Source: Verrucomicrobiota bacterium
Lineage (GTDB): Bacteria; Verrucomicrobiota; Verrucomicrobiia; Limisphaerales; UBA9464
DNA: 35,692 nt
Assembly: GCA_031384285.1 (NCBI GenBank)
Contig: JANNAJ010000264.1
Coordinates: forward strand, 1-35,692
Direction of reading: 5' to 3'
Below are positions 8,592 through 30,433 of the stretch, piece after piece (the stretch's first letter is position 1; each line of letters starts with the position of its first letter). The notes beneath the pieces were generated by a model. The model was not told where the DNA came from, searched no databases, and was given only the letters and a program-made list of their open reading frames with translations. A program made the position numbers and the translations under genes.

Positions 8592-10058
<1,467 letters not shown>

Positions 10059-13166: not shown

Positions 13167-13983
13167 AGCCTACATGCAGCGCGCCTTGGTCACGGCCCTG
13201 CTGCTCGGGCCGCTGTGCGGGCTCATCGGCGTGTTCGTCACCGCGCGGCGCATGGCCTTCTTCAGCGACACCATCTCCCACGCGGCGCTCGCCGGCATCG
13301 CGGTCGGGTTCTGGCTCGGGTTCGCCGACCCGACGCTGCCGATGGTCGCGGTGAGCCTCGGCGTCGCCGCGCTGATGCTCTGGCTCAAGGAGAAGACCGA
13401 CCTGCTCACCGACACCATCATGGCGTTGCTGCTCAGCGGATCGGTCGCCTTCGGCATCGTGGTGATCAGCCTGCTGAAGGGCTTCCGCGGCGAGCTGCAC
13501 CGGTACCTGTTCGGGGACATCCTCAGCGTCGGTCCGCAGGAGGTCTGGCTCGCGTTCGCCGTGTCGGCGGTCGTCGCCGCGGCGGTGGCCGTGCGGCTGG
13601 ACGCGCTCACGCTGCTCACCGCCAGCGAGGACCTCGCCCATGTCTCGGGCATCCCGGTGCGACGGCTGAACTACGCCTTCGTGCTCGTCCTCACCGTCGT
13701 CGTGGCGCTGAGCATCCGGCTTCTCGGGATCATCCTCGTCACCTCGCTGCTGGTCATCCCGCCGGCGGCGGCGCGCAACATCGCCCGGAACCTCCGCCAG
13801 CAGATCGTGCTCGCGGTCGTCGCCGGCGCGCTCGGTGGCGGCGGCGGGGTCGCCCTGAGCTACCGCTTCGACCTTCCCTGCGGCCCGTCGATCGTGCTGA
13901 CCAGCGTCGCCCTGTTTCTCGCGACGCTCGCCGCCAGCCGTCTGCGGCAGGCCTCCGGCCGGGCGCTCCGCTCCGCGCCATGA
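13156..13983 (+). CDS. znuB: Metal ABC transporter permease (ABC-3)
   Basis: RRMAFFSDTISHAALAG, YLFGDIL and GIILVTSLLVIPPAAAR. Confidence 0.92.
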   Translation: MFTEAYMQRALVTALLLGPLCGLIGVFVTARRMAFFSDTISHAALAGIAVGFWLGFADPTLPMVAVSLGVAALMLWLKEKTDLLTDTIMALLLSGSVAFGIVVISLLKGFRGELHRYLFGDILSVGPQEVWLAFAVSAVVAAAVAVRLDALTLLTASEDLAHVSGIPVRRLNYAFVLVLTVVVALSIRLLGIILVTSLLVIPPAAARNIARNLRQQIVLAVVAGALGGGGGVALSYRFDLPCGPSIVLTSVALFLATLAASRLRQASGRALRSAP

Positions 13984-14468
13984 GCTCTCCCTGCTCCCGC
14001 CATCCGCATCCGCACCGGCTCATCCAGCAGCCGTTGACGGAGCTGACCGAGAAGCTGCGCAGCAAGTCGCGGAAGATCACCGCGCCGCGCCAGGCCATCC
14101 TCGAGGTGCTCCGCCGGCACCAGCATCCCATCACCAACAAGGAGATCCATGCCGCGCTCGGCACGGCCGATTGCGATCTCGCGACCGTCTACCGCAACCT
14201 GCACACGCTCGAGGACATGGGCATGGTGCGGCGCTTCGATTTCGGCGACGGCGTCGCGCGATTCGAGCTGCTCGAGGAAGGTGACGACGGGCACCATCAC
14301 CACCTCGTCTGCACCGGATGTTCCGCGGTCGTGGAGGTGGAGGGCTGTTTCCCGACCGAGCTGGAGCAGACCCTTGCCCGGCGGCACGGCTTCACCCGCG
14401 TCACCCACAAGCTCGAGTTCTTCGGCCTCTGCCCGAAGTGCGCGCCGGTCGGGCCGGCATCTCCCTGA
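13980..14468 (+). CDS. zur: Fur-family metalloregulator, probably Zur
   Basis: TAPRQAIL, ATVYRNL, HHHHLVCTGC and FFGLCPKC; ATGA overlap with znuB. Assignment as Zur rather than Fur is inferred from context. Confidence 0.8.
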   Translation: MSSPCSRHPHPHRLIQQPLTELTEKLRSKSRKITAPRQAILEVLRRHQHPITNKEIHAALGTADCDLATVYRNLHTLEDMGMVRRFDFGDGVARFELLEEGDDGHHHHLVCTGCSAVVEVEGCFPTELEQTLARRHGFTRVTHKLEFFGLCPKCAPVGPASP

Positions 14469-15366: not shown

Positions 15367-16677
15367 TCAAGGATGGCTGCGGTAACGGCGCGGGAAAACG
15401 ACGCGGAACGTCGTGCCTGCTTCCGCCGAACTAGCGATCTCCAGGCTCGCATCCAGCAATTCACACAGGCGTTTCACGATCGAAAGCCCGATGCCTTCAC
15501 CGGGATGATGCTGGGATGATGCGGTCGGGGTGACGGGCTCTTCGGGCGATGGCAGCACCTGCGAGGTTTCCCCCTTGATGGCGGCGGACTTTTCATCGGA
15601 CTCCTTCGCGCTCGCTGTGGCTTCTTGCAAGCCGTCCACCATGGATGTGCCCGCGTCGGTCAACATTCCTGGACCTGTATCCTTGACCATCAGCCACCAA
15701 CTCTCCTTCTCCTCGCCCCAGTTCACGGTGACGCCGCCGTCCACGGTGTATTTGAGGGCGTTCACCAACAGATTCTTCGCCACGCGTCGGACTTTATCGG
15801 CGTCGCCCTCGACATCAAGATCCGCTTGCCCTTCGGCTTTTAGGAACAGCTTGCGTTCGTGCGCGAAGGGTTGATTGGCGTCGCACAGTTCCGTGATCAA
15901 TGCGCCGGCGTCGAATGCCGCGATCTCCCGATTTTCTTGGCCAGCTTCCAAGCGCGCCAGGTCCATCAATTCAGCCAGCATCGTGGTCAGACCTTGGGTG
16001 GCCCGCTGCAGGAACTTCGTCGCTTCCACCCGGTCGGCTTCGTCCATACCAGTCCGGCCGACCATCGTTGCCGCCATGCTGACGCCGAGAACGTCGCTGT
16101 TCAGATCGTGGACCGCCTGATGGATGAGCGCGGCGCGGCGCTGCTCGAGTTCATCCACCGTCGCCATGGCGCTCGTCAAGTCGACCACCCGGCTGGCGGC
16201 TTCCGCCTGCTGCATGCGCTCGTATTGGGCGGCGCTCTCGCCGATGGTGTCATTGATCAGGTGGAGCAGCTGGCGATGCGCCTCCAGCAACACCGCCGGC
16301 TCCAGTTCCGGATGCGCGGCGACGATGCTGCCCAGCTCTTCAAACACGCAGAGCTGGAGATGCCCGCATTCGCTGATGAGTTCCTTCAACCGGTAGCCCT
16401 GCTGCCAGCGATGCAACCCGTGCTTGATCCCTTCTTGCTTTTTTTCAACCTCGGCCGTCCGGGCGTCCACTCCGCCCGGACGGGAGCGCAGTCTGAGTCC
16501 ATAGGCGTCGAGGATGGCGGGAACGTGATCGAGGAACTGCCCGATCGTGAGCGCGCGCCCGGTCATCTGTTCCGGGTCGGCGCGATCCAGCTTGCGCCAA
16601 GTCGAAAGGATGGCTTCCCGCCGCGCCGCAAGGAGATCACTCAAAGCCACCAACTGCTGGCTCGGTGTCAGAGGCAT
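15367..16677 (-). CDS. Cytoplasmic sensor histidine kinase (RsbRD_N-like + HisKA + HATPase_c)
   Basis: N-terminal LLAARREAILSTW...HGLHRWQQGY (RsbRD_N-like); H-box AVHDL, N-box NLLVNALKYT, G1 VKDTGPG and G2 GEGIGLSIV; no transmembrane segment; more A/T-ending codons than neighbouring genes. Confidence 0.88.
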   Translation of the reverse strand: MPLTPSQQLVALSDLLAARREAILSTWRKLDRADPEQMTGRALTIGQFLDHVPAILDAYGLRLRSRPGGVDARTAEVEKKQEGIKHGLHRWQQGYRLKELISECGHLQLCVFEELGSIVAAHPELEPAVLLEAHRQLLHLINDTIGESAAQYERMQQAEAASRVVDLTSAMATVDELEQRRAALIHQAVHDLNSDVLGVSMAATMVGRTGMDEADRVEATKFLQRATQGLTTMLAELMDLARLEAGQENREIAAFDAGALITELCDANQPFAHERKLFLKAEGQADLDVEGDADKVRRVAKNLLVNALKYTVDGGVTVNWGEEKESWWLMVKDTGPGMLTDAGTSMVDGLQEATASAKESDEKSAAIKGETSQVLPSPEEPVTPTASSQHHPGEGIGLSIVKRLCELLDASLEIASSAEAGTTFRVVFPRRYRSHP

Positions 16678-18184: not shown

Positions 18185-18434
18185 CGGATGGACCTTCGTT
18201 AAACGGGCCAGATGGAACAGGGCGGCGAAGGGGAAGGCGAAGGAAAAATCCGTCACATCGCGCGGCACGACGTCCGGCAAAACGAGCGCGGAGTCCGAAA
18301 CGGCGGAAAGATGGTGCTCTCGGGCCTGCTCGTCGGCCTGTCCGTGATTGTGTCCTAGGTGTCCGCCGCTTCCGACCGCACCCGGTCCCGCCGGGCGCAT
18401 TGACCCGGAGTCCGGCGCTTGCACATCCTCCGAC

Positions 18435-20072
18435 ATGTCCGCGGCCCCGCTTGAAACGACCTCCCTTGCGCCTCAGACCGCATCGGTGCCGGCCGCGCGC
18501 TGGGACTGGCCGTTCTTGGCGCTGCTCGCGGCGCTCTGGACGTGGGCGATCGGCATCGATGCACCGTTCTGGCAGACCAATCCGGACTACTCGTACGGCT
18601 TCATCGTGCCGGTCCTGATGGTCTTCTACCTCTGGAAGCGGCTCGGCCAAACAGACCCGCCGGCATGGCAGGTCGCCACAGGCGGACCGGTTGGCCGACG
18701 TGGGTTGAACCCTTGGCTGTTGGCGGTCCCGGCGCTCGGGTTGTTCCCGCTCGAGGTCTACCGCATCGAATACTTCCAGTCCGGTGTCGTGCTCTGGGTG
18801 ATCAACCTCGCGACGGTCGGCTTCACCTTGGCCGGGGCGTGGTGGTTGGGCGGACGCCGGCTCCTCGCGACGGTGGCGTTCCCGGTCCTGTTCTTCCTCA
18901 CCGCGGTCCCGTGGCCCGCGAAGATCGCCACGCCGGTGCAACAGGCCTTGATGACGAACGTCGCGCAGGTCGTGTCGGAGATGCTCCTGTGGCTCGGCGT
19001 GCCGGTGCAGCTCGAAGGCGCGGTGCTGCATCTCACCAAAGGACCGGTCGGCATCGTCGAAGCATGCAGCGGCATCCGGTCGCTCCAATCGGGCCTCATG
19101 GTGAGCCTGGCCGTCGGCGAGCTCCTGTGGCTGACGCGGCGGCGGCGGATCGGGCTGGTCGCCTTCGCGGTGCTGCTGGCCCTGACCAGCAACCTCGTCC
19201 GGACCTTCACGCTCTGCTGGATCATGGAGAAGGGCGGCGGCGACGCGATGCACAAGGCCCACGACATGGTGGGCAACATCGCGATGTATTCGCTCTACGC
19301 GCTCATCTACGGCGTCGGGAAACTGCTCGAGCCGCGCGGCGGCGCCCCTTGGCCGGAAGGCTCGGGAGGGCCGTGGAAGGCGCGCCTCGCCGGGCTGCGC
19401 TGGACCGCGGTGCCGGAGCTGCGGCCGCTCCTCGCCGCCAGCGCGCTGATGTTCGCCGTCGTGCACGGTTGGTACCACGTGTTGACCCTCCAGGTGAAAC
19501 CGCAGACGACGCCCTACTTCACCGCCAAGATCGACAAGACCGCGGGCACGGAGAAGCAACCGTTCGACGAGCAGGTCTGGGGACGTCTCGGCGCCACCGA
19601 AGGCGAGCAGGTGCGGCACCGGACCTCGACGGCACCGGCGGGTTTCGTGGACGCCTACCACCTCTTCTGGCGGCCGTCGCCGATGAGCAAGACCGCGCTG
19701 CACCACCGGCCGGACATCTGCATGCCGGGCTCCGGTTGGAAGCAGGTCGGCGACGTCGAGACCGTCGAGGCCTCGCTCGATGGACGCCCTTTGCGGTGGC
19801 TGCTCTTCCGCTTCGAGAAGAGCGACCTGAAGGCGCTCCAACTCTGGGGCGTCTGGCGCAACGGCGAGCCGGTGGAGATGGATTATTCCGCCCGTATCTC
19901 CGTCCTGCCGGAGAAATACCATCCCTTCCCCAGCGCCCGCCATCTGATGGGCGTCGAGCTGGTATCGGTCTTCCTGCCCTACCGCGGCGACGCGGCCCCG
20001 AAGACATCGACCCTCACCGCGATGCTCCCGCAGCTCTTCACCTATCGCCCGCCCGAGACGCCGGCGAAGTGA
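18435..20072 (+). CDS. Exosortase/archaeosortase family protein fused to a C-terminal EpsI-like domain
   Basis: [10 protein letters not shown], catalytic triad candidates [11 protein letters not shown] (Cys), NLVR (Arg) and AHD (His), multiple TM helices, and an EpsI-like [12 protein letters not shown]. Start taken at the ATG at 18435. Confidence 0.88.
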
Positions 20073-20082
20073 CCCCCCGGCT

Positions 20083-21831
20083 ATGTCGAAGACACCGGAC
20101 ACGGATCCTCCGAGACCGGGCGTCGTGCGGGTCGGTGGTTGGCGGAGGAATCCGGACCGGGTCCGGGACGCCGTGCTCAGATGGGGCGGCGCGCTGTTGC
20201 TCCTCGCGGTCGCTGCGATCGTCGCCTACAAAGCGGTCTATCCGGTCGTCAAGGTCAGGCGCGGACGCGACCATGCGCTGGACGTCGAGCGGCTCCTTCG
20301 CCGGGGCGAACTCAAGAAGGCATCGGTCCGGCTCAAGTTGGCGCTCCATTTCGCACCGGAGGACCCTGGAGTGCTCCGCACAGCCGCCCGCTACTGTTCC
20401 ATCCTGCGCCTGCCCCAAGGCCTGACCTACCACGAGATGCTGCTCGGCACCGGCCAAGCGACCGATGCCGACCGCCGCGGCTATGTCGAGTTGGCGGTGG
20501 ACCTGGGGCGCGTCGACCTCGCCGCACGGCAACTGCGAGCGCTGCTGCAGGAGAACCCGAAGGACATCGGCTTGCTCCACCTGCTGGTCCGCCAACAGCG
20601 CGCCGCCCGCGATCTGGCTTCCGCGACAAGGACCGCGCGTTTCGCCCTGTCGCTCCGCCCCGAGGAGGAGCGCAGCCAACTCATCCTCGGACGGCTGCTC
20701 ATGGACAGGCGCGACTCCCCTGCGCTCCGCTCCGAAGGACGCCGCCTGCTCTGGGGCCTCGCGGTCGGAAACGGCCCCGGCCACGACGATGCCGCCGACC
20801 TGCTCATCGGTGATGCGGACCTGTCGCCAAGCGAGCGCGAGCTGCTCGCAAGATCCGTCGCCGCCCGGCCCGGCAACGGGCTGCGCGACCAACTGCTCGT
20901 CGCTGGACTCCGCCTGCCGGCCGAACCCGGTCGCAGCAACGCCGTGGTCGCCGAGACGATCCGCTCGCTCTGGCCGCGGGCGGACGCGGAAACGCTGCCC
21001 GTCATCGGCGATTGGGCCAGCCGCCACGGCGGCTCGGACGTCCTGTTGGATCTGATACCCGTCGACGGCGCCCACACCAACCGGATGTGGGCGCCGATGC
21101 GTGCGCTGGCGCTCGCCGATGCGCGGCGATGGGACGAGCTCGCGAAGGTGCTCAACGAGGCCGCCGGCCCGCTCGGCTCGTTCGTCTCGACCAGCCTCAA
21201 GGGACGCCTAGCCTTGTCGCGCGACCGCCGCGCCGAGGCCGAAGGACATCTCCTCGCGGCCATCGAGCTGCCCGGCCTGTCGGTCAGCCAGTGCCGTTTC
21301 ATCGCGAGCGAATCGGAGCGCGCCGGCTTCACCCGCCTCGCCATCCGGGCCTGGCAGCGGATCGAGACGGACCCCGAGGAATCGGTCGGTGCCTGCCTGC
21401 AGGTGCTGCGGCTCGCGCGCCCGTTGGACGACACGCCGCTGGTGTTCGACACCGTCAAACGTCTGAACGACTACATCCCGGGCGACGACCAGGTGGCAGG
21501 CGAGCGTGCCTGGTTCGAGCTGTTGCTCAAGCAAGGCACCGACCACGGCAAGGACACCGCGGCGATGCTGGCGAAGAAGTACCCGGCAGAACCGCGCTGG
21601 CGTTATCTCGCCGCCTTGGCAGAGCTGCGCGCAGGACGGCCGGAGCCGGCGCTTGCGATGGTCGAGGCGGACCTCGGCCGCTGGACCGAACTGGAGCCCC
21701 GGTGGCAGCTGGTCGGCGTTCTCGCGCTGGCGGAGAACCAGCAACGCGAGGCCGCGCGCGGTCTGGCCCGGCGCATCGACCCGAGGAAACTCCGGTCCGC
21801 CGAGCTCCAGCTGCTCACGCCTTGGCTGTGA
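20083..21831 (+). CDS. Membrane-anchored all-helical (TPR-like) protein
   Basis: One N-terminal TM segment (WGGALLLLAVAAIVAY) and repeated helical motifs (ALHFAPED, LLQENPKD, ALSLRPEE, LAKKYPAE); starts 10 nt after the exosortase stop. Confidence 0.65.
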   Translation: MSKTPDTDPPRPGVVRVGGWRRNPDRVRDAVLRWGGALLLLAVAAIVAYKAVYPVVKVRRGRDHALDVERLLRRGELKKASVRLKLALHFAPEDPGVLRTAARYCSILRLPQGLTYHEMLLGTGQATDADRRGYVELAVDLGRVDLAARQLRALLQENPKDIGLLHLLVRQQRAARDLASATRTARFALSLRPEEERSQLILGRLLMDRRDSPALRSEGRRLLWGLAVGNGPGHDDAADLLIGDADLSPSERELLARSVAARPGNGLRDQLLVAGLRLPAEPGRSNAVVAETIRSLWPRADAETLPVIGDWASRHGGSDVLLDLIPVDGAHTNRMWAPMRALALADARRWDELAKVLNEAAGPLGSFVSTSLKGRLALSRDRRAEAEGHLLAAIELPGLSVSQCRFIASESERAGFTRLAIRAWQRIETDPEESVGACLQVLRLARPLDDTPLVFDTVKRLNDYIPGDDQVAGERAWFELLLKQGTDHGKDTAAMLAKKYPAEPRWRYLAALAELRAGRPEPALAMVEADLGRWTELEPRWQLVGVLALAENQQREAARGLARRIDPRKLRSAELQLLTPWL

Positions 21832-21846: not shown

Positions 21847-23523
21847 TCACCGCGAGCGGAGCAGATGGTAGGTGTGGCAAGTGGTGCATTCCGAGCGGGC
21901 GCTTCCGCCCGGCTTGTGGCAATCGGCGCACGAGGCCTGCGATGGCAGATTGATGTCGGAAGTCGTGCGGCTCTCACGGACGGCGTGGCATCCGTCGCAG
22001 CTCATCTGGCCGTGCTTCTCGTGGGTGAAACGTCCGCCCAGGAGCCAACGGTCCGGGATCACCGGGCGCGTCACCTTCGCGAAGGAGCCGGGGTCGGGAC
22101 GGACCTCGTGGCAGTAGGCGCAACCGGCGTAGTGGGCCCGCCGTTCGGCGCTGATCCCGGGCTGGGCCTGCCGCGGATCCCCGGTGAAGAGCACCAGCTT
22201 CTCCAGCGATTCACCGCCGCCGAAGGTCTGCCGCATCCGCGTGACGTTCTGCTGTGCGAACGCATCGACCTCGTCCCGGCGGGGCGGACTTCCCGCCGCG
22301 ACCAGCTCCTTCGTCTTGATCTCGGCGTAGAGCAACGGCAGTCCGCGCAGCTTCGCCCGGACGGCTGCGACCTCACCATGCGGGAGCTTGAGCTCCGGAT
22401 GCACTGGATCGAACTGCAGGTCGTGGCACGCCGCGCAATGCTGGTCGTAGCGGATCCGCGCCATGTAGGATCCCGTGGCGTCCGGCACGTGGCAATCGAC
22501 GCACCCGAGCGGATTCCCGCCCAAGCGGACGGTCTCGCCGAGATGCAGGGCGTGGTTGAACCTCAAGGTGTCCGGGTCCTTCAGGCCGCCCGCGCGAACG
22601 CCGAAATCCGGGTGCCCTTGCCCGAACGACGCGATCAAGTTCGTGCGACCGCCCGGCGGGCGCGGGGTCCGGAAAGCGATCAAGCCCGCTTGGACCGGCG
22701 GGTCGAACCGTTCGGACCCGATGCCCAGACCTTTGGCGGACGACTGCTGCATCACGTCCGCATGGTCATGGCAACGTGCGCACTGCACATCTTCCGGCGC
22801 GGCCATCGCGAGCCCTTGGTGCTCGACGTGACAGACCGAGCACGAGTGACCTTGGACCACGTTGGGCTGATGGAACTCATGCTGGTCGTGGCAGACGGCG
22901 CACGATTGTCGGTCCATGGCGCTCATCGGGACCACCCCGGCCGGGAGCTTCGCGAACTGGTCCTTCCCGAAGGGCGCAGGATGCGAGCGCAACGCCATCT
23001 GGGCCCAGGAAGCGACGCCCGAAGCGGCCGCACGATGGCAGGCGGCACAACTGTTCGGCGCATCGAGGCGTTCTTTGGCAACGCGGGCGAAGGAATCACC
23101 TTGGTGGGGCTTCGACACGGTCCGGGGCGAGAGGATCCTCCAACGCCATCCGCTTCCGAGCCCGATGAGCAAGCACGCGAAGGTCACCGCGACGACCGCA
23201 AGGGTGGTCCGGCCGCGGAGATTCCTGAGGGTCCGCTGCGGTGCGCAGACCACGGCCGGGCATCCGCACGAACCATCGGGCCGAGGTCCGTCGACGCACG
23301 GCCCGCCGTGTTCCTTGGCCCGGGTGCATCGCCATGCGCCCTTCTCTTCGCCCTGAAGTTTGTCCAGGACGGGTCGGCAATCAGCGGTCGCGCGGCAGGC
23401 ACCGCCCGCGGTCGGCCCCATGCGGCACGGTTTCCCGTCGCAAGCATGACCGCAGACCCACGCATCGGACGGCCGTTCATAGCGCGCAGGATCGGATCCT
23501 GGAGATGGCAGATTGTCGGTCAT
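21847..23523 (-). CDS. Membrane-anchored decaheme cytochrome c with an N-terminal Cys-rich tandem repeat
   Basis: Ten CxxCH motifs (CAACH, CAVCH, CSVCH, CARCH, CVDCH, CAACH, CAYCH, CDGCH, CADCH, CTTCH); FNHALH and FTHEKH as c3/c7-like distal His motifs; TM segment TTLAVVAVTFACLLIGLG. The start at 23523 (MTDNL) overlaps the upstream stop (TGATG). Confidence 0.88.
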   Translation of the reverse strand: MTDNLPSPGSDPARYERPSDAWVCGHACDGKPCRMGPTAGGACRATADCRPVLDKLQGEEKGAWRCTRAKEHGGPCVDGPRPDGSCGCPAVVCAPQRTLRNLRGRTTLAVVAVTFACLLIGLGSGWRWRILSPRTVSKPHQGDSFARVAKERLDAPNSCAACHRAAASGVASWAQMALRSHPAPFGKDQFAKLPAGVVPMSAMDRQSCAVCHDQHEFHQPNVVQGHSCSVCHVEHQGLAMAAPEDVQCARCHDHADVMQQSSAKGLGIGSERFDPPVQAGLIAFRTPRPPGGRTNLIASFGQGHPDFGVRAGGLKDPDTLRFNHALHLGETVRLGGNPLGCVDCHVPDATGSYMARIRYDQHCAACHDLQFDPVHPELKLPHGEVAAVRAKLRGLPLLYAEIKTKELVAAGSPPRRDEVDAFAQQNVTRMRQTFGGGESLEKLVLFTGDPRQAQPGISAERRAHYAGCAYCHEVRPDPGSFAKVTRPVIPDRWLLGGRFTHEKHGQMSCDGCHAVRESRTTSDINLPSQASCADCHKPGGSARSECTTCHTYHLLRSR

Positions 23524-24356
23524 CAGTTGGCCCCTGCCCCTCCCGAGAAGGCGAAGACGAGCACGACGTGGAGGACGGTCAGGATGAGAAGGCTGTAGGT
23601 GAGAGGGATGTGGACGAACAGCCAGAGCTTCAGGCTCAGCTGCAGGGATCTCTGGTAGTCCAGGCCGTCTTTCTGCGCGACCATCACGGCGAGTTCCCCG
23701 AGCACCTTGCGCTGTTCCGGGGCGAGGAACCGGTCGAGGTCGGCGATACGGGCTTCGATCCGCATCAAAGGACTCCGCACCTCGGCGAGATGCCTCCATC
23801 CGTTCATCGGCCGCCCGAGGAACCCGGCCAGGTGGAGCTTGTAGAAATCCGCGACCGCGGTGGACCGGGTCGCCGCGACGGACGCCAGCGCCAGAGCCTC
23901 GGCATCCTCGGCCAGTTTGCGGCGGATGGCCGGGATGCGCTCGTAGAGCGCCTCACATCCGCGGGCCGTCAGCCGACGCGGCACGATCCGCGACCAGACG
24001 AGCCCGGCCACACCGCTCGCGGCGACCGCCAGATAGAGCGAAGCCAACGCCGCTTCGAATGCTCCGGTCGGCCAACGCCAACCGGTGTGGGCGAGGAAGA
24101 GCGCGAGCGAGAAGTAGCCGACGTAGGCATGGAGCTGGAGCCACGTCCTGGAGTTCCCGAGAGGAAGGAACGGCAGCTTCTTCCGCGCGTTGTAGGCGGT
24201 GAGGAACAAGCAGACGGCGAGCAGGAGCCAACCGCTGAGGTAGGCGAGATGCCGCATCACCGGCGCCAGCTGCCGGTGTCCCCAGGACAAGGCGACCACG
24301 GCCGCGACCAGCAGCAGCACCCCGGAAAGACGGCGTTTTACGGTGGTGCGCATCAT
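23523..24356 (-). CDS. Integral membrane protein with putative heme-b ligating histidines (ferric-reductase-like TM domain)
   Basis: About five to six hydrophobic segments with His pairs WLQLHAYVG...FLAH and WLFVHIPLT...VLHV; translationally coupled at both ends. Confidence 0.7.
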   Translation of the reverse strand: MMRTTVKRRLSGVLLLVAAVVALSWGHRQLAPVMRHLAYLSGWLLLAVCLFLTAYNARKKLPFLPLGNSRTWLQLHAYVGYFSLALFLAHTGWRWPTGAFEAALASLYLAVAASGVAGLVWSRIVPRRLTARGCEALYERIPAIRRKLAEDAEALALASVAATRSTAVADFYKLHLAGFLGRPMNGWRHLAEVRSPLMRIEARIADLDRFLAPEQRKVLGELAVMVAQKDGLDYQRSLQLSLKLWLFVHIPLTYSLLILTVLHVVLVFAFSGGAGAN

Positions 24357-26095
24357 CGGTGCAACCAGGTGGCGAAGGTGTCGAGCCGGGTCATGTCCAT
24401 GCGCTTCAAAGCATCATGGGGACAGGCCCGTTCACATGCGGGCCCGCCGTATTGGTCGATGCAATGGTCGCACTTCGTCGCCTTGAGGACGGGTCTGGAC
24501 TCCTTGTCCGTGACGAAGTCCCCGCCCGTGTCCCGCGCCTCGACCATGCGGATGGCGTCGTAAGGGCAGTTGTTCGCGCAACTCGTGCAACCGATGCACG
24601 TCGCCTGGTTGATCACCACGTCGCCGGCCGAGGCGTCGCGGTGGATCGCCCCGGTCGGGCAACCGATCATGCAGACAGGATCCACGCAATGCATGCAGGA
24701 CTGCGCCACCTGGATCCCGGCGCTGACCGGGCCTTGGCGGAGGAAGCGCGGGTTGTTGTCATGCGTCGCCGCGCAGGCACGGACACAGTCGTCGCACCGC
24801 GTGCAACGGGCGAGGTCGATGACCATCGTCGCCGTGCCGTTGAAGATCCGGCGGCCCGTGAGGAACTCCATGAGCTCCGGTCCGATCCGCTGCGCGAAGC
24901 CGCCCTGCTCCTTCAGCGGATCGTCATCGTCGGCGTCGAGCTCGTCCGTGGTGAGCGGCCCCGGCAGAAGAGCGTTCGGCGCGCCGGGCAGCACGACCTG
25001 CTCCATGACCCGGGTCGGGACGAAGAGGGTGTGGGTATACCCGATGACGCGGAGCGAGAACTGGAACGGGACCGCCGCACCGGGATCCCGCCAATTGTGG
25101 GCGATCTCCCGCAGGCCGAACCAGCGTCCCGCGCCAAGGTAGTTCAAGGTGCGCTGGCCGCTGCCGAAGCGCTTGGAGAGGCGCCCGAACCCGGACCGGA
25201 TGAAGATCACCCCGTCCGGATAATCGCCCTCTTGGGCGATGACCGTTTCTTTGTCGACCGAGTTCGTGCCGGCCTTCGCGAGCTTCTTGTAGTCCCCGGA
25301 CCAGTCGTATTCGCCGTAGGTCCCGAACTGGGTCTGGGCGGCCACCTGGGCGAGCTGCTCCTCGTCGAGATGCTGGAAGATGGGGAACGAACGGAGGGCG
25401 TTCGAAAGCGTGTTCTTCCGATAGAGCGCGTCGATGTGCGCCCGGAGCGCAGCATCGTTCTTCAGGATGTCGCGGAGCCCCTGCCACCGGATCTCCAGAA
25501 GCTCCGCGTCGTCGGAATCGCACAGGACGGTCGCGGTCCGCGGCATGCGGCTGAGGGCCGCGATCTCGCCGAAGAACTCGCCCGGGCCGAGGGTCACCGT
25601 CTTGTTCTTCCCGATCAGCCGGGGCACATCCTGCAAGAAGACCCGCGAACCGCTCTCCGGGTCCGCGCCGCCGCCGCCGCCCAATTCCTCAGGGGTGCGG
25701 ACCTCGGGGTTCCGATGGTTCGCCCAAAGCTGGGCGACCGCGCGGAAGACCGACCGCTTCGCCGGCTCGCGACGGCCGAGCACCCGGTCCGGGAGGCCGG
25801 GAGGCAACACGACGCGGACGTCCCCGCCCACGATCATGAACGCGGAGGACCCGTAGTCGCCGGCGCGGACGATGATCTCCCCGCGCTTGAAGCGGCGGAT
25901 CCGGGTATCGCTCCGGAGGATGGTCCGGAGCGGTTGCTTTTTCGGGAAGCTCTCCGGGTCCATGTCCTTGAACGGCGCGAGCGAGGCGATCCGGTCGAGG
26001 TCTGCGTCAGGGAACTCCGGGTCGAACGGATTGTCCTGACGCCCGAGGCGTTCGATCTGGTTCCGGGGCGTGTCCATGGGTTCGGAAGCGGACAC
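24353..26095 (-). CDS. Tandem cyclic-nucleotide-binding domains fused to a four-cluster [4Fe-4S] (DmsB/NrfC-like) domain
   Basis: cNMP domain 1 has GEIIVRAGD...LGPGEFFGEIAAL..MPRTATV; domain 2 is degenerate (VIAQEGD...LGAGRWFG). Cys groups are CTRCDDCVRAC, CMHCVDPVCMIGCP, CIGCTSCANNCP and CDHC...CERACP. The start is either the GTG at 26095 or the ATG at 26077. Confidence 0.9.
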   Translation of the reverse strand: MSASEPMDTPRNQIERLGRQDNPFDPEFPDADLDRIASLAPFKDMDPESFPKKQPLRTILRSDTRIRRFKRGEIIVRAGDYGSSAFMIVGGDVRVVLPPGLPDRVLGRREPAKRSVFRAVAQLWANHRNPEVRTPEELGGGGGADPESGSRVFLQDVPRLIGKNKTVTLGPGEFFGEIAALSRMPRTATVLCDSDDAELLEIRWQGLRDILKNDAALRAHIDALYRKNTLSNALRSFPIFQHLDEEQLAQVAAQTQFGTYGEYDWSGDYKKLAKAGTNSVDKETVIAQEGDYPDGVIFIRSGFGRLSKRFGSGQRTLNYLGAGRWFGLREIAHNWRDPGAAVPFQFSLRVIGYTHTLFVPTRVMEQVVLPGAPNALLPGPLTTDELDADDDDPLKEQGGFAQRIGPELMEFLTGRRIFNGTATMVIDLARCTRCDDCVRACAATHDNNPRFLRQGPVSAGIQVAQSCMHCVDPVCMIGCPTGAIHRDASAGDVVINQATCIGCTSCANNCPYDAIRMVEARDTGGDFVTDKESRPVLKATKCDHCIDQYGGPACERACPHDALKRMDMTRLDTFATWLHR

Positions 26096-27400
26096 CTAGG
26101 CGTCGAGCACGAGATCGCCCTTCGGCCGGCAGACGCAGGTGAGGCAAGACCCGGCCTCGCCCGGATCGGCCTTGGACAGGTACTCCACCTCGCCTTGCTT
26201 CACGGCCACCGAACAGGAACCGCAACTGCCGGCGCAGCAGCCGGAATCGATCCGGACGTCGTTGGCGCGAGCGAAGTCGAGGAGGTTCAAGAGCGCCGGA
26301 TCCCAGCGCACGACCTTGCCGGATTTCCCGAAGGTGACGTTGACCACCTTGCCGCCGGCGTCGGCCTTGCGGAGGGTCAGCGTGTCGCTCGTCTTCTTGA
26401 TGGTCGCGGGCCCGAACGCCTCGTAGTGGATCTTCGCCTCGGGCACGCCCCAACCGATCAACCCTTCGTACATCGACTTCATGAACGACCCGTTGCCGCA
26501 CATGTAGTAGTCGTAGTTGCTGGACGGCAACGCCGCCTTGAGCACGTCGGCCGTGAGCCGGCCCGCCGTGTGGAAATCCTTGCCCTGGACGTCCGCGGGG
26601 CCGGGCTTCGAGTAGCAGACGTGGAGCCGGATGTTGTCGCACCGGGCCGCGAGCTGCTCGACCTCGGCCTTGAGCATGTGGTCGGCCCGGCTGCGACAGA
26701 CGAAGAAGAACCAGGTCTCGCGCTCCGACCCGATGGCGGCGATCTCGCGGGCCATCGACAGGACGGGCGTGACGCCGACGCCGGCGCTGATCAAGACGAC
26801 GGGCGTCTGCTTCTCCGTCTCGAGGTAGAAGTGGCCGCCGGGCGCCTTGACGTTGAGGATGTCGCCGTCCTTGACCCCATCGGCGAAGAAGCTGGACCCG
26901 ACGCCGGGCGGTACGCCGGGTTTGTCGGGCGGGGCTTTCTCGTTCTTGATCGTGACCCGGTAGAAATCGCGGTCCGAAGGCGCCGAGCTCAGCGAGTAGC
27001 AGCGCACCACCTGTTTGTCCCGTCCGGGGATATCGAGACCAAAGGTGAGATACTGGCCTGCCTTGAAGGCCGGGATCGCCTTCCCGTCGTGCGGCTTGAG
27101 CACGAAAGAGAAGACATCCTCGCATTCATGGAGCTTCTCGGCGACCCGGAACTTGCGCCACCCGTTCCAAGAAGATTTCTCCTGCTCCGTCTGGTCCCAC
27201 CGGCTCTTCGCGAGCCGGACCTCGTACGCGAGCCTCTCGCTCTCGAGCGCGAACTGCCTCCGCTGCTGCACCAACCTCCGGACGGAGCTGACGACCGCCA
27301 GGCCTGTCTGGGCAGCCACGGCGGCGAGCAGTCCGAAGCCGATCACCAGCCCCGGGTTCGCCCGTGCACTTTCCACCGAGATCAGGAGAAGGGTTTGCAT
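26096..27400 (-). CDS. FNR-like FAD/NAD(P)H oxidoreductase with a C-terminal [2Fe-2S] ferredoxin and an N-terminal membrane anchor (Hcr/PaaE-like architecture)
   Basis: FKAGQY, RCYSLSS, GVGS, ISAGVGVTP, YMCG and IHYEAFG; 2Fe-2S motif GCCAGSCGSC...CLTC; hydrophobic N-terminus GLVIGFGLLAAVAAQTGLAVV. This gene is the C-terminal 434 aa of the 1701-aa ORF in the track. Confidence 0.9.
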   Translation of the reverse strand: MQTLLLISVESARANPGLVIGFGLLAAVAAQTGLAVVSSVRRLVQQRRQFALESERLAYEVRLAKSRWDQTEQEKSSWNGWRKFRVAEKLHECEDVFSFVLKPHDGKAIPAFKAGQYLTFGLDIPGRDKQVVRCYSLSSAPSDRDFYRVTIKNEKAPPDKPGVPPGVGSSFFADGVKDGDILNVKAPGGHFYLETEKQTPVVLISAGVGVTPVLSMAREIAAIGSERETWFFFVCRSRADHMLKAEVEQLAARCDNIRLHVCYSKPGPADVQGKDFHTAGRLTADVLKAALPSSNYDYYMCGNGSFMKSMYEGLIGWGVPEAKIHYEAFGPATIKKTSDTLTLRKADAGGKVVNVTFGKSGKVVRWDPALLNLLDFARANDVRIDSGCCAGSCGSCSVAVKQGEVEYLSKADPGEAGSCLTCVCRPKGDLVLDA

Positions 27401-27409
27401 CGTGCTAGA

Positions 27410-27426
27410 CGGTTGATTATCAACCG
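27410..27426. promoter_or_regulatory. Perfect palindrome in a divergent promoter region (putative operator)
   Basis: CGGTTGAT-T-ATCAACCG (8-1-8) lies within the 60-nt gap between the divergent starts at 27400 and 27461. Confidence 0.5.
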
Positions 27427-27460
27427 AGGTGTGCGAAGTAAACTTCTTTGCTGGGCCCGG

Positions 27461-28588
27461 ATGAGTTTCTTCGCCCGCCTCCGCGCGGTTTCTTTCGGTG
27501 CGGCCCTTTCCTTCGCGGCGACACCATCGCGCGCGGAATCCGCGCTGGCCCGCTACATCGGCGCCAGCTCCTGCGCCACGGCTTCGTGCCACGGCGGCGC
27601 CGGGGACCAGCGCGACCAATGGGTCCGCTGGAACACCAAGGACGTCCACCGCCGCTCGGGCGCGACGCTGACCATGGCAAGGTCCGTGCAGATCGGCGCT
27701 GCCGCCGGCATCCGTGACGTGTCGGACGACGCCCGCTGCACGGTCTGCCATGCGCCTTTCGCCGACGTCCCGATGGCACAGCGCATCGGCCCGCTCGACC
27801 GCGGCGACGGCGTCTCCTGCGAGACCTGCCACGGCCCGGCCGAGCCGTGGATCCGGGCGCACACCCGCACCGCGAAGGACGGCTACACGCATGGCGACAA
27901 GGTCGCCGCCGGCCTCCGCGACCTGCGCAACCCGTACGTCCGCGCCAACACCTGCGTCGCCTGCCACGAGAACGTCGACCGCGGACTCCTGAAGGCCGGG
28001 CATCCGGAGCTCATCTTCGAGCTCGACGGCCAGACAGCAGGGGAACCGCGCCACTGGATGGAACGCACCGGCTGGGACGGCGGCCAAGCGTGGCTCGTCG
28101 GCCAAGCGGTCGCGCTCCGCGAGGTGAGCTGGCAGCTCGCCCGTCCCGGGCAATCCGACAGTCGCCTCGTCGCCCGCCAAGCCGGCCTGCTCTGGGTGGT
28201 CCAACGCGCTTCGCGGGCCATCGGCCAAAACACCTTCGCATCCCTCGCCGTGCAGTCCTCGGCCGACAAGACCCGCGCCGCGGCCGACGACCTCGCGAAA
28301 GACATCGCCGCCCGACCTTGGGCGCTCGGGCTGACCGCCGCCGTGCTCAAGCAGTTGGCTTCGGCCACCGAGGATTTCCGGGACGCCGGGACGCCCGCGG
28401 AGATCCAAGCCCGCCGTGGCGAACGTCTCGTGCTGGCGCTCGACCGGTTGCTCGCCGCCTCCGACCGTGCCGTGGAGACCCGCCTCGATGCCGAGATGAA
28501 AGATCTCTTCCGGCTTGCCCAATCGTTGCCCGATTTCGATCCGGCCAAGTTCGCCGCCGCATTGGAGAAGTTCGCCGCGAAGCTCTGA
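27461..28588 (+). CDS. Exported tetraheme cytochrome c (c554-like) with a helical C-terminal domain
   Basis: Signal peptide ending PSRA; YIGASSCATASCH (atypical CX4CH), CTVCH, DGVSCETCHGP and CVACH. This gene is the C-terminal 375 aa of the 1409-aa ORF in the track. Confidence 0.85.
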   Translation: MSFFARLRAVSFGAALSFAATPSRAESALARYIGASSCATASCHGGAGDQRDQWVRWNTKDVHRRSGATLTMARSVQIGAAAGIRDVSDDARCTVCHAPFADVPMAQRIGPLDRGDGVSCETCHGPAEPWIRAHTRTAKDGYTHGDKVAAGLRDLRNPYVRANTCVACHENVDRGLLKAGHPELIFELDGQTAGEPRHWMERTGWDGGQAWLVGQAVALREVSWQLARPGQSDSRLVARQAGLLWVVQRASRAIGQNTFASLAVQSSADKTRAAADDLAKDIAARPWALGLTAAVLKQLASATEDFRDAGTPAEIQARRGERLVLALDRLLAASDRAVETRLDAEMKDLFRLAQSLPDFDPAKFAAALEKFAAKL

Positions 28589-28654: not shown

Positions 28655-30433
28655 ATGCCCGTACCCGAGTCCGCTCCCAAATCCGCTCCCGAAGGCACGT
28701 CCGTCCGACCACCGGGGATGGGACGGTCCGATTTTTTGCCTTGGGTGGTCTGCTTGGTTTTCGGCCTGTTCATAGCGACGCTGCCGCACTGGATCCGGCC
28801 CCTGCCAGGCCAAGGTCCAGGCTGGATCGCCAGCCTTGACGAGCTGGGCTGCTACCTCTCGGTCGGCGCCCAAGCCTACCACAACCATCCGTGGAGTCTC
28901 ACCGATCCGGTGCTCCCGGACGGAGGCGACAGCATCTATCCCGCCCTGCAGCTGGTGCCCGGGATCTGGATCGCGAAGCTCTTTGGCCTCGGCCCGATGG
29001 GCATCACCCTCGGATGGCGCATCTGGGCGGGGTTGACGCTCCCGACGGGTTTCTACCTGCTGCTGCGCCGGTTCGTCGGACGTCCATGGGCGGCCGCGGC
29101 GCTGACCGCCCTGCTGCTCGCCGACCACGGCCTGACCGAGAAGCGTCTCGTGGACCGCCATTTCTTGGCGTTCTTCCGGATCCTGGCCTCCGACGGAACC
29201 GACCCCCTTTTCGGTTCGTGGCCGCAGTTCCTCCACCAATGGAGGCTCATCACACCCGGACTTAGCCTCGTCTTCCTGTGCGCACACGTCGGCCTGTTGG
29301 CGCGCGCTCTCCGGACGCCCTCGCGGTCGGCGATCGTCCTGTCTGGGCTCGGGTTCGGACTGCTCTTCTGGAGCTACTTCTACTATTGGACCGCGGCTTC
29401 GGTCGCATTGGTCCTCTGCTGGCTGGTGGACCGGTCGGCCCGGAAGACCTATCTCCACACCGGTGGGATCGGGTTCCTCGTCGGCCTGCCGGCATTGGCC
29501 CAGAACGCCTGGACCAAACATGCGGCGGTACCGGGCTGGCTCCAGAACGTGGACCTGTTCGTGCCCGTGCCTCGCTTGTCCGAACTCACGTTTCCGCCGG
29601 TCGCCATCGCCACGACCCTCGCGTCCTTCGCATGGTGCTGGTGGCGACGTCGGGACCTGTTGCCGTCGGCAGCGATGGCATCCGCCGGGATGCTCTGCTC
29701 GAACCAACACATCCTGACCGGCATCGGCATCCAAGACGGCCATTGGGCTTACGTCTGGGGGCCGTTCTTGGGCGTGACCCTGGCGATCCTCGCGGCGGAT
29801 CTCGCCGCGCCGCACCTGTCCGGGCGGCCGCGGTGGACGGGACTGCTGGTGGCGGCCTTGGCGGCGCACCTCGGGACCGGCATCATGTTCCGCGTCTGGG
29901 AAGGCACCGGTTGCCGGGAACCGCTCGCCCTGAACGCCGACTGGCGACGGTTCGTCGAGCAGCGGGTCGCCTTGTCGTCCCCACCGCTCGAGCCGAACGC
30001 GGTCGTCGCCGGAGACCGTGGCTTCGCCGATTTCGCGTTGATCCAGGAAAACACGCGGGCCCTGCTGGGGGCCGCGTTCCTCAGCCCCTCGGTGGACGCA
30101 TCGGAGCTCGATGAACGGACGGCCCTCAACGACCTTCTGCTCGGACTTTCCGCCTCCGAGAGCCAGTCGAAGTTCGCCCGGGACCTCGCGGCCGAGCCGG
30201 GCCTCTGGGCGCAGGTCCCGGGAGTCCGCGCCCGCAGTCTGGCCCGTGGCTCGGCCATCTATCGCAGCGTGGCAGCCCATGTCCCCGGCGCGCTCCGACG
30301 CTACGGCGTCCGTTACGTGGCGCTGCCCGCGGCGACGCCGACGCCGCGCTACCTGGCCGAAGGTTGGAAGCGCCTCCAAGCGGGGCCGCACTGGCAGTTG
30401 TGGGAACGCGTCCCGCCCGTGCTGACGAAGTGA
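28655..30433 (+). CDS. Polytopic membrane protein of unknown function (possibly GT-C-like)
   Basis: More than ten hydrophobic segments, an acidic DE pair after TM1, GLLFWSYFYYW and a soluble C-terminal domain ending LRRYGVRYV. The function is inference only. Confidence 0.55.
   Translation: MPVPESAPKSAPEGTSVRPPGMGRSDFLPWVVCLVFGLFIATLPHWIRPLPGQGPGWIASLDELGCYLSVGAQAYHNHPWSLTDPVLPDGGDSIYPALQLVPGIWIAKLFGLGPMGITLGWRIWAGLTLPTGFYLLLRRFVGRPWAAAALTALLLADHGLTEKRLVDRHFLAFFRILASDGTDPLFGSWPQFLHQWRLITPGLSLVFLCAHVGLLARALRTPSRSAIVLSGLGFGLLFWSYFYYWTAASVALVLCWLVDRSARKTYLHTGGIGFLVGLPALAQNAWTKHAAVPGWLQNVDLFVPVPRLSELTFPPVAIATTLASFAWCWWRRRDLLPSAAMASAGMLCSNQHILTGIGIQDGHWAYVWGPFLGVTLAILAADLAAPHLSGRPRWTGLLVAALAAHLGTGIMFRVWEGTGCREPLALNADWRRFVEQRVALSSPPLEPNAVVAGDRGFADFALIQENTRALLGAAFLSPSVDASELDERTALNDLLLGLSASESQSKFARDLAAEPGLWAQVPGVRARSLARGSAIYRSVAAHVPGALRRYGVRYVALPAATPTPRYLAEGWKRLQAGPHWQLWERVPPVLTK

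Follow-up and report, generated by a model that had tools for sequence, protein, structure and literature searches.

What do five adjoining genes accomplish together when they encode, on one contig of a Verrucomicrobiota bacterium, a reductase for nicotinamide nucleotides (NAD(P)H), a ferredoxin-like protein fused to two cyclic-nucleotide-binding (cNMP) domains, a membrane protein and two multiheme cytochromes c? The window analysed here is the entire contig (JANNAJ010000264.1, 35,692 nucleotides; 35.7 kb with a G+C content of about 67%), and the genes lie between positions 21847 and 28588, with ptdC, ptdE, ptdF and ptdG on the minus strand and ptdD on the plus strand. Their names are those of the 'ptdABCDEFG' operon, named in a 2023/24 preprint (bioRxiv 10.1101/2023.11.21.568154). 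We hold with moderate confidence that the five genes specify a quinone-independent electron-export chain fed by NAD(P)H and form the core of the Ptd multiheme cluster, and the conduit is probably regulated by cyclic nucleotides. The cofactor occupancy, direction of flow, gating and terminal acceptor described below are those that we infer. A first-pass annotation of the window had proposed a redox wire from cytoplasm to periplasm, and this part of its proposal is supported in silico by a conserved gene block, invariant ligands, a coherent topology and docking.

The ptd genes and their recurrence

The minus-strand genes follow one another from ptdC (26096..27400; 434 aa, a membrane-anchored NAD(P)H:acceptor reductase by translation and Pfam/NCBIfam matches) through ptdE (24353..26095; 580 aa from a GTG start, a cytoplasmic protein with two cNMP domains and a four-cluster ferredoxin domain) and ptdF (23523..24356; 277 aa, an inner-membrane protein and putative transmembrane di-heme b carrier) to ptdG (21847..23523; 558 aa, a bitopic decaheme cytochrome c). 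The TAG stop codon of ptdC (26098-26096) abuts the GTG of ptdE (26095-26093), while stop and start overlap as ATGA (24356-24353) between ptdE and ptdF and as TGATG (23525-23521) between ptdF and ptdG. A gap of 60 nt separates the start of ptdC, at 27400, from that of ptdD on the plus strand (27461..28588; 375 aa, an exported tetraheme cytochrome c). Each of the five genes is single-copy in the genome that was searched (4.65 Mb, 776 contigs, 95.5% complete). These gene limits, junctions and domains, together with the 16 cluster cysteines, the two histidine pairs and the 10 and 4 heme sites, had been read in the first-pass annotation and were all confirmed. The ptdG start at 23523 is backed by homologues that start in the same column. 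Since PtdE homologues are 574 aa long, the true start of PtdE is probably the ATG at 26077, six codons past the GTG, which would give a 574-aa protein and an 18-nt gap after ptdC.

In the preprint (bioRxiv 10.1101/2023.11.21.568154), PtdA is a pentaheme protein with a beta-sandwich, PtdB a porin, PtdC an FAD/NAD(P) (flavin adenine dinucleotide) oxidoreductase, PtdD a periplasmic tetraheme cytochrome, PtdE a protein that combines a cNMP domain with two 4Fe-4S clusters, PtdF a transmembrane ferric-reductase-like protein and PtdG a decaheme cytochrome called periplasmic; the cluster is reported there from Alpha- and Gammaproteobacteria, Nitrospirales and Planctomycetes of marine or saline origin. 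Judged by gene content and order, the five genes of the first-pass annotation are ptdC, D, E, F and G, and the modules of PtdC, the order PtdE-PtdF-PtdG and the tetraheme PtdD that characterise the cluster in the preprint are all found here. The tie is an indirect one, because it was made through loci with the order A-B-C-D-E-F-G and not through the preprint's own proteins. Three such metagenome loci (L104, L116 and L118) carry an A-like and a B-like gene followed by C, D, E, F and G, with a PtdE 48-50% identical to that of the window.

This copy nevertheless departs from the cluster that the preprint describes. Genes ptdA and ptdB, which belong to the named operon, were found neither in the window nor in the genome; ptdD is divergent here and has CX4CH as the first of its heme sites; the PtdE given two 4Fe-4S clusters there has 16 cluster cysteines here, and the PtdG called periplasmic there has a module of eight cysteines (Cys8) and a transmembrane (TM) helix here. 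The hosts also differ, being marine or saline in the preprint, whereas freshwater-sediment and lake metagenome runs contain this stretch and the host of this copy is a freshwater Verrucomicrobiota lineage. The copy is a ptd variant without ptdAB, of a kind that has borne a name since 2023/24. The first-pass annotation knew of no characterised system with this architecture; as a claim of novelty this has to be corrected, the architecture having already been described and named in the preprint, where it is left uncharacterised. Its caveat that similar clusters might exist uncharacterised in other genomes was apt. No already characterised complex was met in the literature, nor was any other description of the architecture or of the ptd names found in a search that lay outside subscription journals.

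The block recurs in other organisms. We examined the best 80 of 552 metagenome stretches encoding a relative, a set that leans toward the query's own kin, and found ptdF directly after ptdE and in its orientation in 55 of the 56 loci with at least 900 nt downstream, and ptdG after ptdF in 40 of the 41 with at least 2.7 kb downstream. Gene ptdC lies directly upstream of ptdE in 45/52 loci with at least 1.4 kb upstream; where at least 7.5 kb is available, it is present somewhere in the locus in 20/20 cases and ptdD in 18/20. All five genes are syntenic in each of the five genome loci with a full-length PtdE, including that of a Phycisphaerales (Planctomycetota) metagenome-assembled genome with 45% identity. 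Thus the gene-neighbourhood search proposed in the first-pass annotation finds the partners of PtdE again and the gene set syntenic elsewhere, and a chance gene cluster is rejected by these counts.

PtdE has more than 4629 homologues and occurs in Verrucomicrobiota and Planctomycetota. It was present in 11 of 401 genomes of an even phylum sample (the genome of the window included), and in the other 10 PtdF always adjoins it, with PtdC, PtdD and PtdG nearby in most. Closer to the window it was found in 8/9 other genomes of the genus (the exception being 54% complete), in 1/15 genomes elsewhere in the family and in 1/16 from other families of the order, so patchy a distribution as would be expected of an accessory module. 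Some relatives have disturbed reading frames. In one genome, a second PtdE copy (L041, G290:C1, 9126-10857) is split into two adjacent open reading frames (ORFs), cNMP domain 1 and then the remainder, and the ptdG beside its first PtdE copy (L040, 11895-14288) seems frameshifted, with 2 + 8 hemes in two ORFs; a PtdE homologue from the genus of the window (G403:C53:9698-11431) contains one in-frame TAG.

Four metatranscriptome runs yield contigs of a relative that match the window at 90-99% and extend over ptdG, ptdF, ptdE and ptdC. A 3555-nt contig spans 23827-27381 and bridges the ptdC/ptdE and ptdE/ptdF junctions, and a 2099-nt contig bridges ptdF/ptdG; they are weak evidence, of presence only, as DNA may occur in such libraries and a contig is not a single transcript. 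Their cover is low over 27408-27674 and ptdD, which is not interpretable for contigs rather than reads.

Proteins along the proposed path

In the path that we propose, PtdC, anchored in the membrane by one helix, would accept on its FAD a hydride given up by NAD(P)H and hand single electrons to its [2Fe-2S] cluster, from which they would run along four [4Fe-4S] clusters of PtdE, docked on the cytoplasmic face of PtdF. Transfer across the membrane would use two b hemes in PtdF, each held between a helix 3 histidine and a helix 5 histidine (H76/H249 on the inner side, H90/H263 on the outer). Electrons would then enter the ten periplasmic c hemes of PtdG, whose own helix and cytoplasmic Cys8 module would anchor it at the complex, and the soluble tetraheme PtdD would deliver them either to an acceptor or to a module of the outer membrane that is encoded outside the window. 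The tandem cNMP domains of PtdE, the first of which looks nucleotide-competent, would switch or tune the flow.

PtdC matches FAD_binding_6, NAD_binding_1 and a C-terminal plant-type [2Fe-2S] Fer2 domain, each above the Pfam cut-off, and its N-terminus reads as a hydrophobic helix (~17-37) followed by an Arg-rich stretch. Over its full length it resembles reductases of the GbcB, Hcr and PaaE type, all NCBIfam scores lying below the equivalog cut-offs, while its Hmp-like FAD/NAD part gives 265 bits with the flavohemoprotein inducible by nitric oxide (NO) (NCBIfam profile positions 140-396). The module order FAD-NAD-[2Fe-2S] is shared with Hcr and PaaE. An N-terminal membrane helix is carried by NqrF as well. 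In contrast to Hcr, PaaE, GbcB and phthalate dioxygenase reductase, PtdC is membrane-anchored, and its partner would be an iron-sulfur (Fe-S) protein of a membrane complex and not an oxygenase.

At the other end of the path, PtdD scores 36.3 bits with Pfam Cytochrome_C554, for which the cut-off is 20.8. Its N-terminus reads as signal-peptide-like, and it ends in a helical domain without known family. Its heme motifs are one CX4CH, at the first site, and three CXXCH; the CX4CH column is CXXCH in 8 of 13 aligned homologues, therefore we count four heme sites. The matches of PtdC and PtdD invite a special form of the export chain, in which NAD(P)H would drive the periplasmic detoxification or reduction of nitrogen oxides or of hydroxylamine, and catalysis would fall to PtdD, together with PtdA in loci that have it. 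The Cytochrome_C554 match and the closeness of the FAD/NAD module to the NO-inducible flavohemoprotein fit such a role, as does the preprint, which reports that ptdAB are highly transcribed in nod-transcribing bacteria and raises nitrogen cycling as an option (bioRxiv 10.1101/2023.11.21.568154). However, these domain matches amount to generic similarities in heme packing and in the reductase fold (ferredoxin-NADP reductase, FNR), no nitrogen-oxide gene was seen among the large ORFs scanned in the window, and about half of the Verrucomicrobiota-type loci have, beside ptdG, a decaheme cytochrome with LVIVD (beta-propeller) repeats that points to insoluble or extracellular acceptors. We judge this specialised form distinctly unlikely.

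PtdE consists of tandem cNMP domains (cNMP_binding, PF00027; 86.6 bits against a Pfam cut-off of 27.5) followed by a four-motif Fer4 region at residues ~424-571; all its NCBIfam equivalog scores are far below cut-off. The 16 cluster cysteines are all kept in 33/33 aligned sequences, therefore PtdE would have sites for four clusters and not the two that appear in the preprint. All four Cys motifs are included in the alignment of the ferredoxin part with HycB3, a subunit of the hydrogen-dependent CO2 reductase (7qv7_A, residues 6-162; E 3.5e-16). In its four motifs this domain is like the ferredoxins DmsB, NrfC, HybA and HycB, and it aligns with subunits of the HycB3 and ArrB type. Those ferredoxins, however, have a molybdopterin, hydrogenase or NrfD-type partner, and none was found for PtdE among the cluster genes or the large window ORFs scanned; PtdE is moreover fused to two cNMP domains.

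The first of these domains retains the canonical phosphate-binding cassette, Gly-Glu...Arg-Thr/Ser. G176, E177, A180, L181, R183 and R186 are invariant in 25/25 sequences, and residue 187 is Thr or Ser in 31/33. In known cNMP binders, the Gly-Glu and the Arg of the cassette hold the cyclic phosphate. Because this cassette is conserved and the genome has two class III cyclases (PF00211), both outside the cluster, control by cyclic nucleotides of the electron flow carried by PtdE is plausible. We tentatively go one step further and propose, at low confidence, that PtdCEFG(D) is an electron valve gated by a second messenger, in which a cyclic nucleotide on PtdE opens or closes the path, PtdF represents a new di-heme b family and a new cytoplasmic metal module, Cys8, links PtdG to the Fe-S chain in the cytoplasm.

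The same chain could, alternatively, run constitutively, with the cNMP-type domains of PtdE as sites for other ligands or as a scaffold or dimerisation module, like some effector domains of the CRP/FNR family. Some of what we found favours this and tells against gating: cNMP domain 2 is without the canonical cassette in the alignment and has a different though conserved sequence there, domain 1 bears a poorly conserved insertion of ~50 residues, and a cyclase near the cluster was found in only 2 of the 80 metagenome loci, both as weak tblastn matches. There is also precedent, as the cNMP-fold domains of CooA, NtcA and CprK bind other ligands. Against it stand the G, E and R of the domain 1 cassette, whose invariance across two phyla would be unexpected for a mere scaffold, and the two class III cyclases of the genome. 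We regard a constitutive chain as an unlikely but serious alternative to the gated one.

The first-pass annotation had also considered that the set might report the periplasmic redox state inward, and this part of its proposal finds little support, as Pfam and NCBIfam recognise in PtdE neither a DNA-binding, kinase or cyclase domain nor an output domain of another kind. Domains of the cNMP type are indeed common in signalling proteins, but they are inputs; and a sensor would need far less than the flavin, the five Fe-S clusters, the 14 c hemes and the two putative b hemes of this chain. No conserved regulator gene was seen beside the cluster, although the search was not a systematic one. To a signalling device in place of a bulk conduit we give hardly any credence.

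PtdF is predicted to have five TM helices, with a cytoplasmic helical domain (~122-240) between helices 4 and 5, and its AlphaFold2 (AF2) model shows five long membrane helices with a predicted local distance difference test (pLDDT) value of 90.9. Four histidines, H76, H90, H249 and H263, are invariant in 30/30 sequences, as two i, i+14 pairs on two helices. The positive-inside rule puts three parts in the cytoplasm, namely the N-terminus, the helical domain and the loop 56-71 (with invariant N56, R58, K59, K60 and P65), therefore H76/H249 would lie near the inner face of the membrane and H90/H263 near the outer. This layout is that of two stacked bis-His b hemes, and from it we infer heme binding. 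At least 827 homologues exist, all unnamed. The NADPH oxidase/ferric reductase domain (NOX/FRD) superfamily and the Fre-MsrQ-MsrP system lead electrons from NAD(P)H outward without quinones, through a flavin and then a stack of two b hemes whose ligands are two His pairs on two helices. The working principle that we propose for PtdF is the same, with two bis-His sites on two helices; but NOX/FRD proteins have six helices where PtdF has five predicted ones and is no detectable member of the superfamily, and in Ptd the flavin module has a protein to itself, five Fe-S clusters would stand between flavin and hemes, and the acceptor would be a multiheme cytochrome.

PtdG has 10 CXXCH motifs in its periplasmic domain, with Cytochrome_C7 above the Pfam cut-off, and exactly 10 are found in 105 of the 120 representatives of at least 500 aa. 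Ahead of this domain lie the Cys8 module (~15-95) and one TM helix (~105-127). When the query was aligned with 148 of the best 150 representatives, two with a module that is not N-terminal being left out, all eight cysteines (C24, C33, C43, C49, C66, C76, C86 and C93) were present in 149/149 sequences, as were Y15, W22, P37, P51 and P95. Searching with a profile of residues 1-150 recovers 760 representative clusters at E <= 0.001, or 382 when the limit is set at E <= 1e-30. The module is placed in the cytoplasm because the heme domain of PtdG must be periplasmic. By their number and invariance the eight cysteines would fit two four-Cys metal sites, zinc or Fe-S; the AF2 model of the module is weak (pLDDT 69).

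When PtdE 405-580 was scored as the partner of PtdF, PtdG 1-135 and two hemes, the docking gave ipSAE values of 0.75, 0.73 and 0.75 (median 0.75), compared with 0.00 in all three controls. When the tool was calibrated, 58 of 80 solved complexes attained this mark, as did 2 of 110 mismatched pairs, counts that are only a rough guide for a job with custom unpaired alignments and a ligand included, and a pass expresses model confidence and is not a measurement. The runs share at least 64% of their contacts, and partner pLDDT is at least 78. On PtdF the contacts (3-5, 59-73, 122-138 and 239-243) are all on the face that topology predicts to be cytoplasmic, in segments that flank H76 and H249 at one to two helical turns; on PtdE they are Cys motifs I and IV (428-444 and 548-562); and PtdG 15, 17-20 and 34-35, which include invariant Y15, R17 and P18, also touch PtdE. 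The Fe-S domain of PtdE is thus predicted by the model to sit on the cytoplasmic face of PtdF. In NarGHI, the end with motifs I and IV faces the catalytic subunit and not the membrane anchor. The predicted geometry differs, as PtdE would meet its membrane partner through these motifs. A sequence profile search of the PDB for a related complex gave chance-level matches only (E 0.65-0.81), and since no related complex appears among solved structures by sequence, it is unlikely that the pass on the PtdF side reflects a structure memorised by the model.

Direction of flow and the outer end

Reductases of the FNR-[2Fe-2S] kind (Hcr, PaaE and the phthalate-dioxygenase-reductase type) pass electrons from NAD(P)H to their partners. 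We favour outward flow because such reductases act as NAD(P)H oxidases, and because an electron that moves outward moves with the membrane potential, whereas inward transfer would be uphill twice and the set contains no coupling element. The path would bypass quinones and would dissipate energy instead of conserving it, which would fit a regulated valve or a line that supplies low-potential reductions in the periplasm or outside the cell.

The reverse direction, in which a periplasmic or extracellular donor would feed the cytochromes and NAD(P)+ would be reduced, as in the reverse electron transport of a lithotroph, draws its interest from the occurrence of ptd in nitrite-oxidising Nitrospirales, which need reverse electron flow (bioRxiv 10.1101/2023.11.21.568154), and all the cofactors are reversible in principle. 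Such a flow would have to overcome both the membrane potential and the redox gap that lies before NAD(P)+ (-320 mV), although the set contains no element for coupling to protons, and would do so by way of a PtdC-type protein whose kin are NAD(P)H oxidases toward their partners; the carrier here is, besides, a Verrucomicrobiota lineage of freshwater sediment and lakes. We consider inward flow highly unlikely.

A number of other observations, added to the limits of the docking and to the points on gating given above, weigh against the export chain. The function of the cluster 'remains completely unknown' according to the preprint (bioRxiv 10.1101/2023.11.21.568154). No terminal reductase or outer-membrane component was found in the window, PtdB was not found in the 95.5% complete genome by tblastn with PtdB-like ORFs, and PtdA was not found either, the tblastn giving only matches of 22-27% identity to other multiheme ORFs (the PtdA/PtdB-like queries were from L035, L036, L099, L104, L112, L116 and L118). 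One locus is an exception to the synteny, a PtdE homologue (L047, 3624-5402; 61% identity) that stands among unrelated genes, with ptdC, F and G all missing from the 3.6 kb upstream and the 10 kb downstream of it.

Most of the remaining adverse points concern PtdF, for which heme binding is argued from the histidine pattern because no recognised heme-protein family matches. No Pfam or NCBIfam family is above cut-off, and the sub-threshold Pfam matches are Ni_hydr_CYTB (16.9 bits against 30.1) and DUF4405 (15.5 against 26.7). Membership in the ferric reductase family found no support: PtdF has no match to PF01794 at E <= 0.1, hhalign against 16 local PF01794 members gives a probability of 0.4%, and a genome-wide search with the PF01794 model returns only contig C30 and does not recover PtdF. 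Foldseek against solved structures finds nothing at E <= 0.001. The best VIA-align hits, all within the helical noise range of the tool, are generic helical chemoreceptor sensor bundles (Z 11.2), then a designed di-heme bundle (Z 8.1) and the Hyd-1 cytochrome b (Z 7.8). A stored PtdF homologue in the ESM Atlas (P0231) has only its own clusters and neighbours of low TM-score, those that carry PF01794 or DUF4405 being at a low 0.35-0.38. PtdF is best treated as its own family.

Where the exported electrons would go is suggested by other loci. Of the 93 loci that we examined (L004, L005 and L031-L121), 10 have a PtdA-like pentaheme and 9 a PtdB-like protein of ~490 aa without a Pfam family. Among Verrucomicrobiota-type loci with at least 9 kb downstream, 10 of 19 show a different arrangement, in which ptdG is followed by an ~800-aa protein and a ~1300-aa decaheme with LVIVD repeats. 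A pair of this kind, an ~830-aa protein and an LVIVD decaheme, is present in the genome of the window on contigs C535 (L016, 3-5448) and C371, with 49-69% identity. One homologue of the ~800-aa protein (in L032) has a sub-threshold match to Alginate_exp, an outer-membrane barrel (E 0.0022), and the barrel-like protein and LVIVD decaheme may be the outer-membrane end of the Ptd system. As PtdA and PtdB are found in few loci and the LVIVD pair in others, we therefore describe C-D-E-F-G, on gene content, as a core whose outward-facing end varies, being either A-B or the barrel-like protein with the LVIVD decaheme.

Surroundings of the cluster and comparison with other conduits

Between ptdC and ptdD, the divergent intergenic region (27401..27460, 60 nt) contains a 15-bp perfect palindrome at 27411-27425 that is AT-rich in a genome of 67% G+C (1 match versus 0.07 expected). 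This FNR/CRP-like palindrome was rejected as a conserved operator, since the nearest relatives (L001 and L002) are the only ones to share it, and of 33 other regions between divergent ptdC and ptdD, 0 contain it. A promoter scan that included this region gave 0 sigma-70-like sites, and the same scan gave 6 terminator-like sites (3.9 expected).

Downstream of ptdG and convergent with it lie an exosortase (EpsH family, 145 bits) and then a 582-aa TPR-like protein (18348-21831). Adjoining ptdD is a 592-aa multi-pass membrane protein without a Pfam family (28655-30433), with a TPR protein and then a PLD-type (cardiolipin-synthase-like) gene beyond it. A sigma-54 response regulator (8592-10058), a Fur-family domain that closes a long ORF (13215-14468) and a histidine kinase (15367-16677) lie 5-13 kb from the cluster. 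A planctomycete-type cytochrome c protein with PSCyt1/PSCyt2 (DUF1549) is cut by the contig end (33978-35690). The first-pass annotation had seen no porin or cyclase gene in the window, and this holds for the large ORFs that we scanned, in a scan that was not exhaustive. Elsewhere in the genome, contigs C570 (1433-4366) and C272 encode multiheme cytochromes (5 and 4 CXXCH) with an N-terminal multi-helix membrane domain, that of C570 also with a C-terminal TPR-like region.

To our knowledge, known bacterial inner-membrane exit routes begin at the quinone pool. In MtrCAB with CymA, and in the Geobacter Pcc conduits with ImcH or CbcL, the inner-membrane entries oxidise quinol. Ptd as we propose it resembles these porin-cytochrome conduits in that multiheme c cytochromes would lead electrons off the inner membrane, and its relatives likewise have a large decaheme and a barrel-like protein beside the cluster. 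It would differ at the entry, drawing on NAD(P)H in place of quinol, through Fe-S clusters and b hemes, with a second-messenger domain on the way.

A route of this kind would spend reducing power and membrane potential and deliver low-potential electrons outside; it could be a redox safety valve, a supply line for reductases or an entry to extracellular electron transfer. Beyond the preprint, the present analysis separates the core C-D-E-F-G from accessory modules, gives PtdE sites for four clusters instead of two, and adds the putative His ligands of PtdF, the Cys8 module of PtdG and a model of PtdE docked on PtdF. If the electron valve is real, it would be the first known direct control of transmembrane electron flow by a cyclic nucleotide in bacteria, and the conserved cNMP cassette on an Fe-S carrier makes second-messenger regulation of an electron wire directly testable. 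Ptd is thus an uncharacterised, widespread candidate for second-messenger control of electron export.

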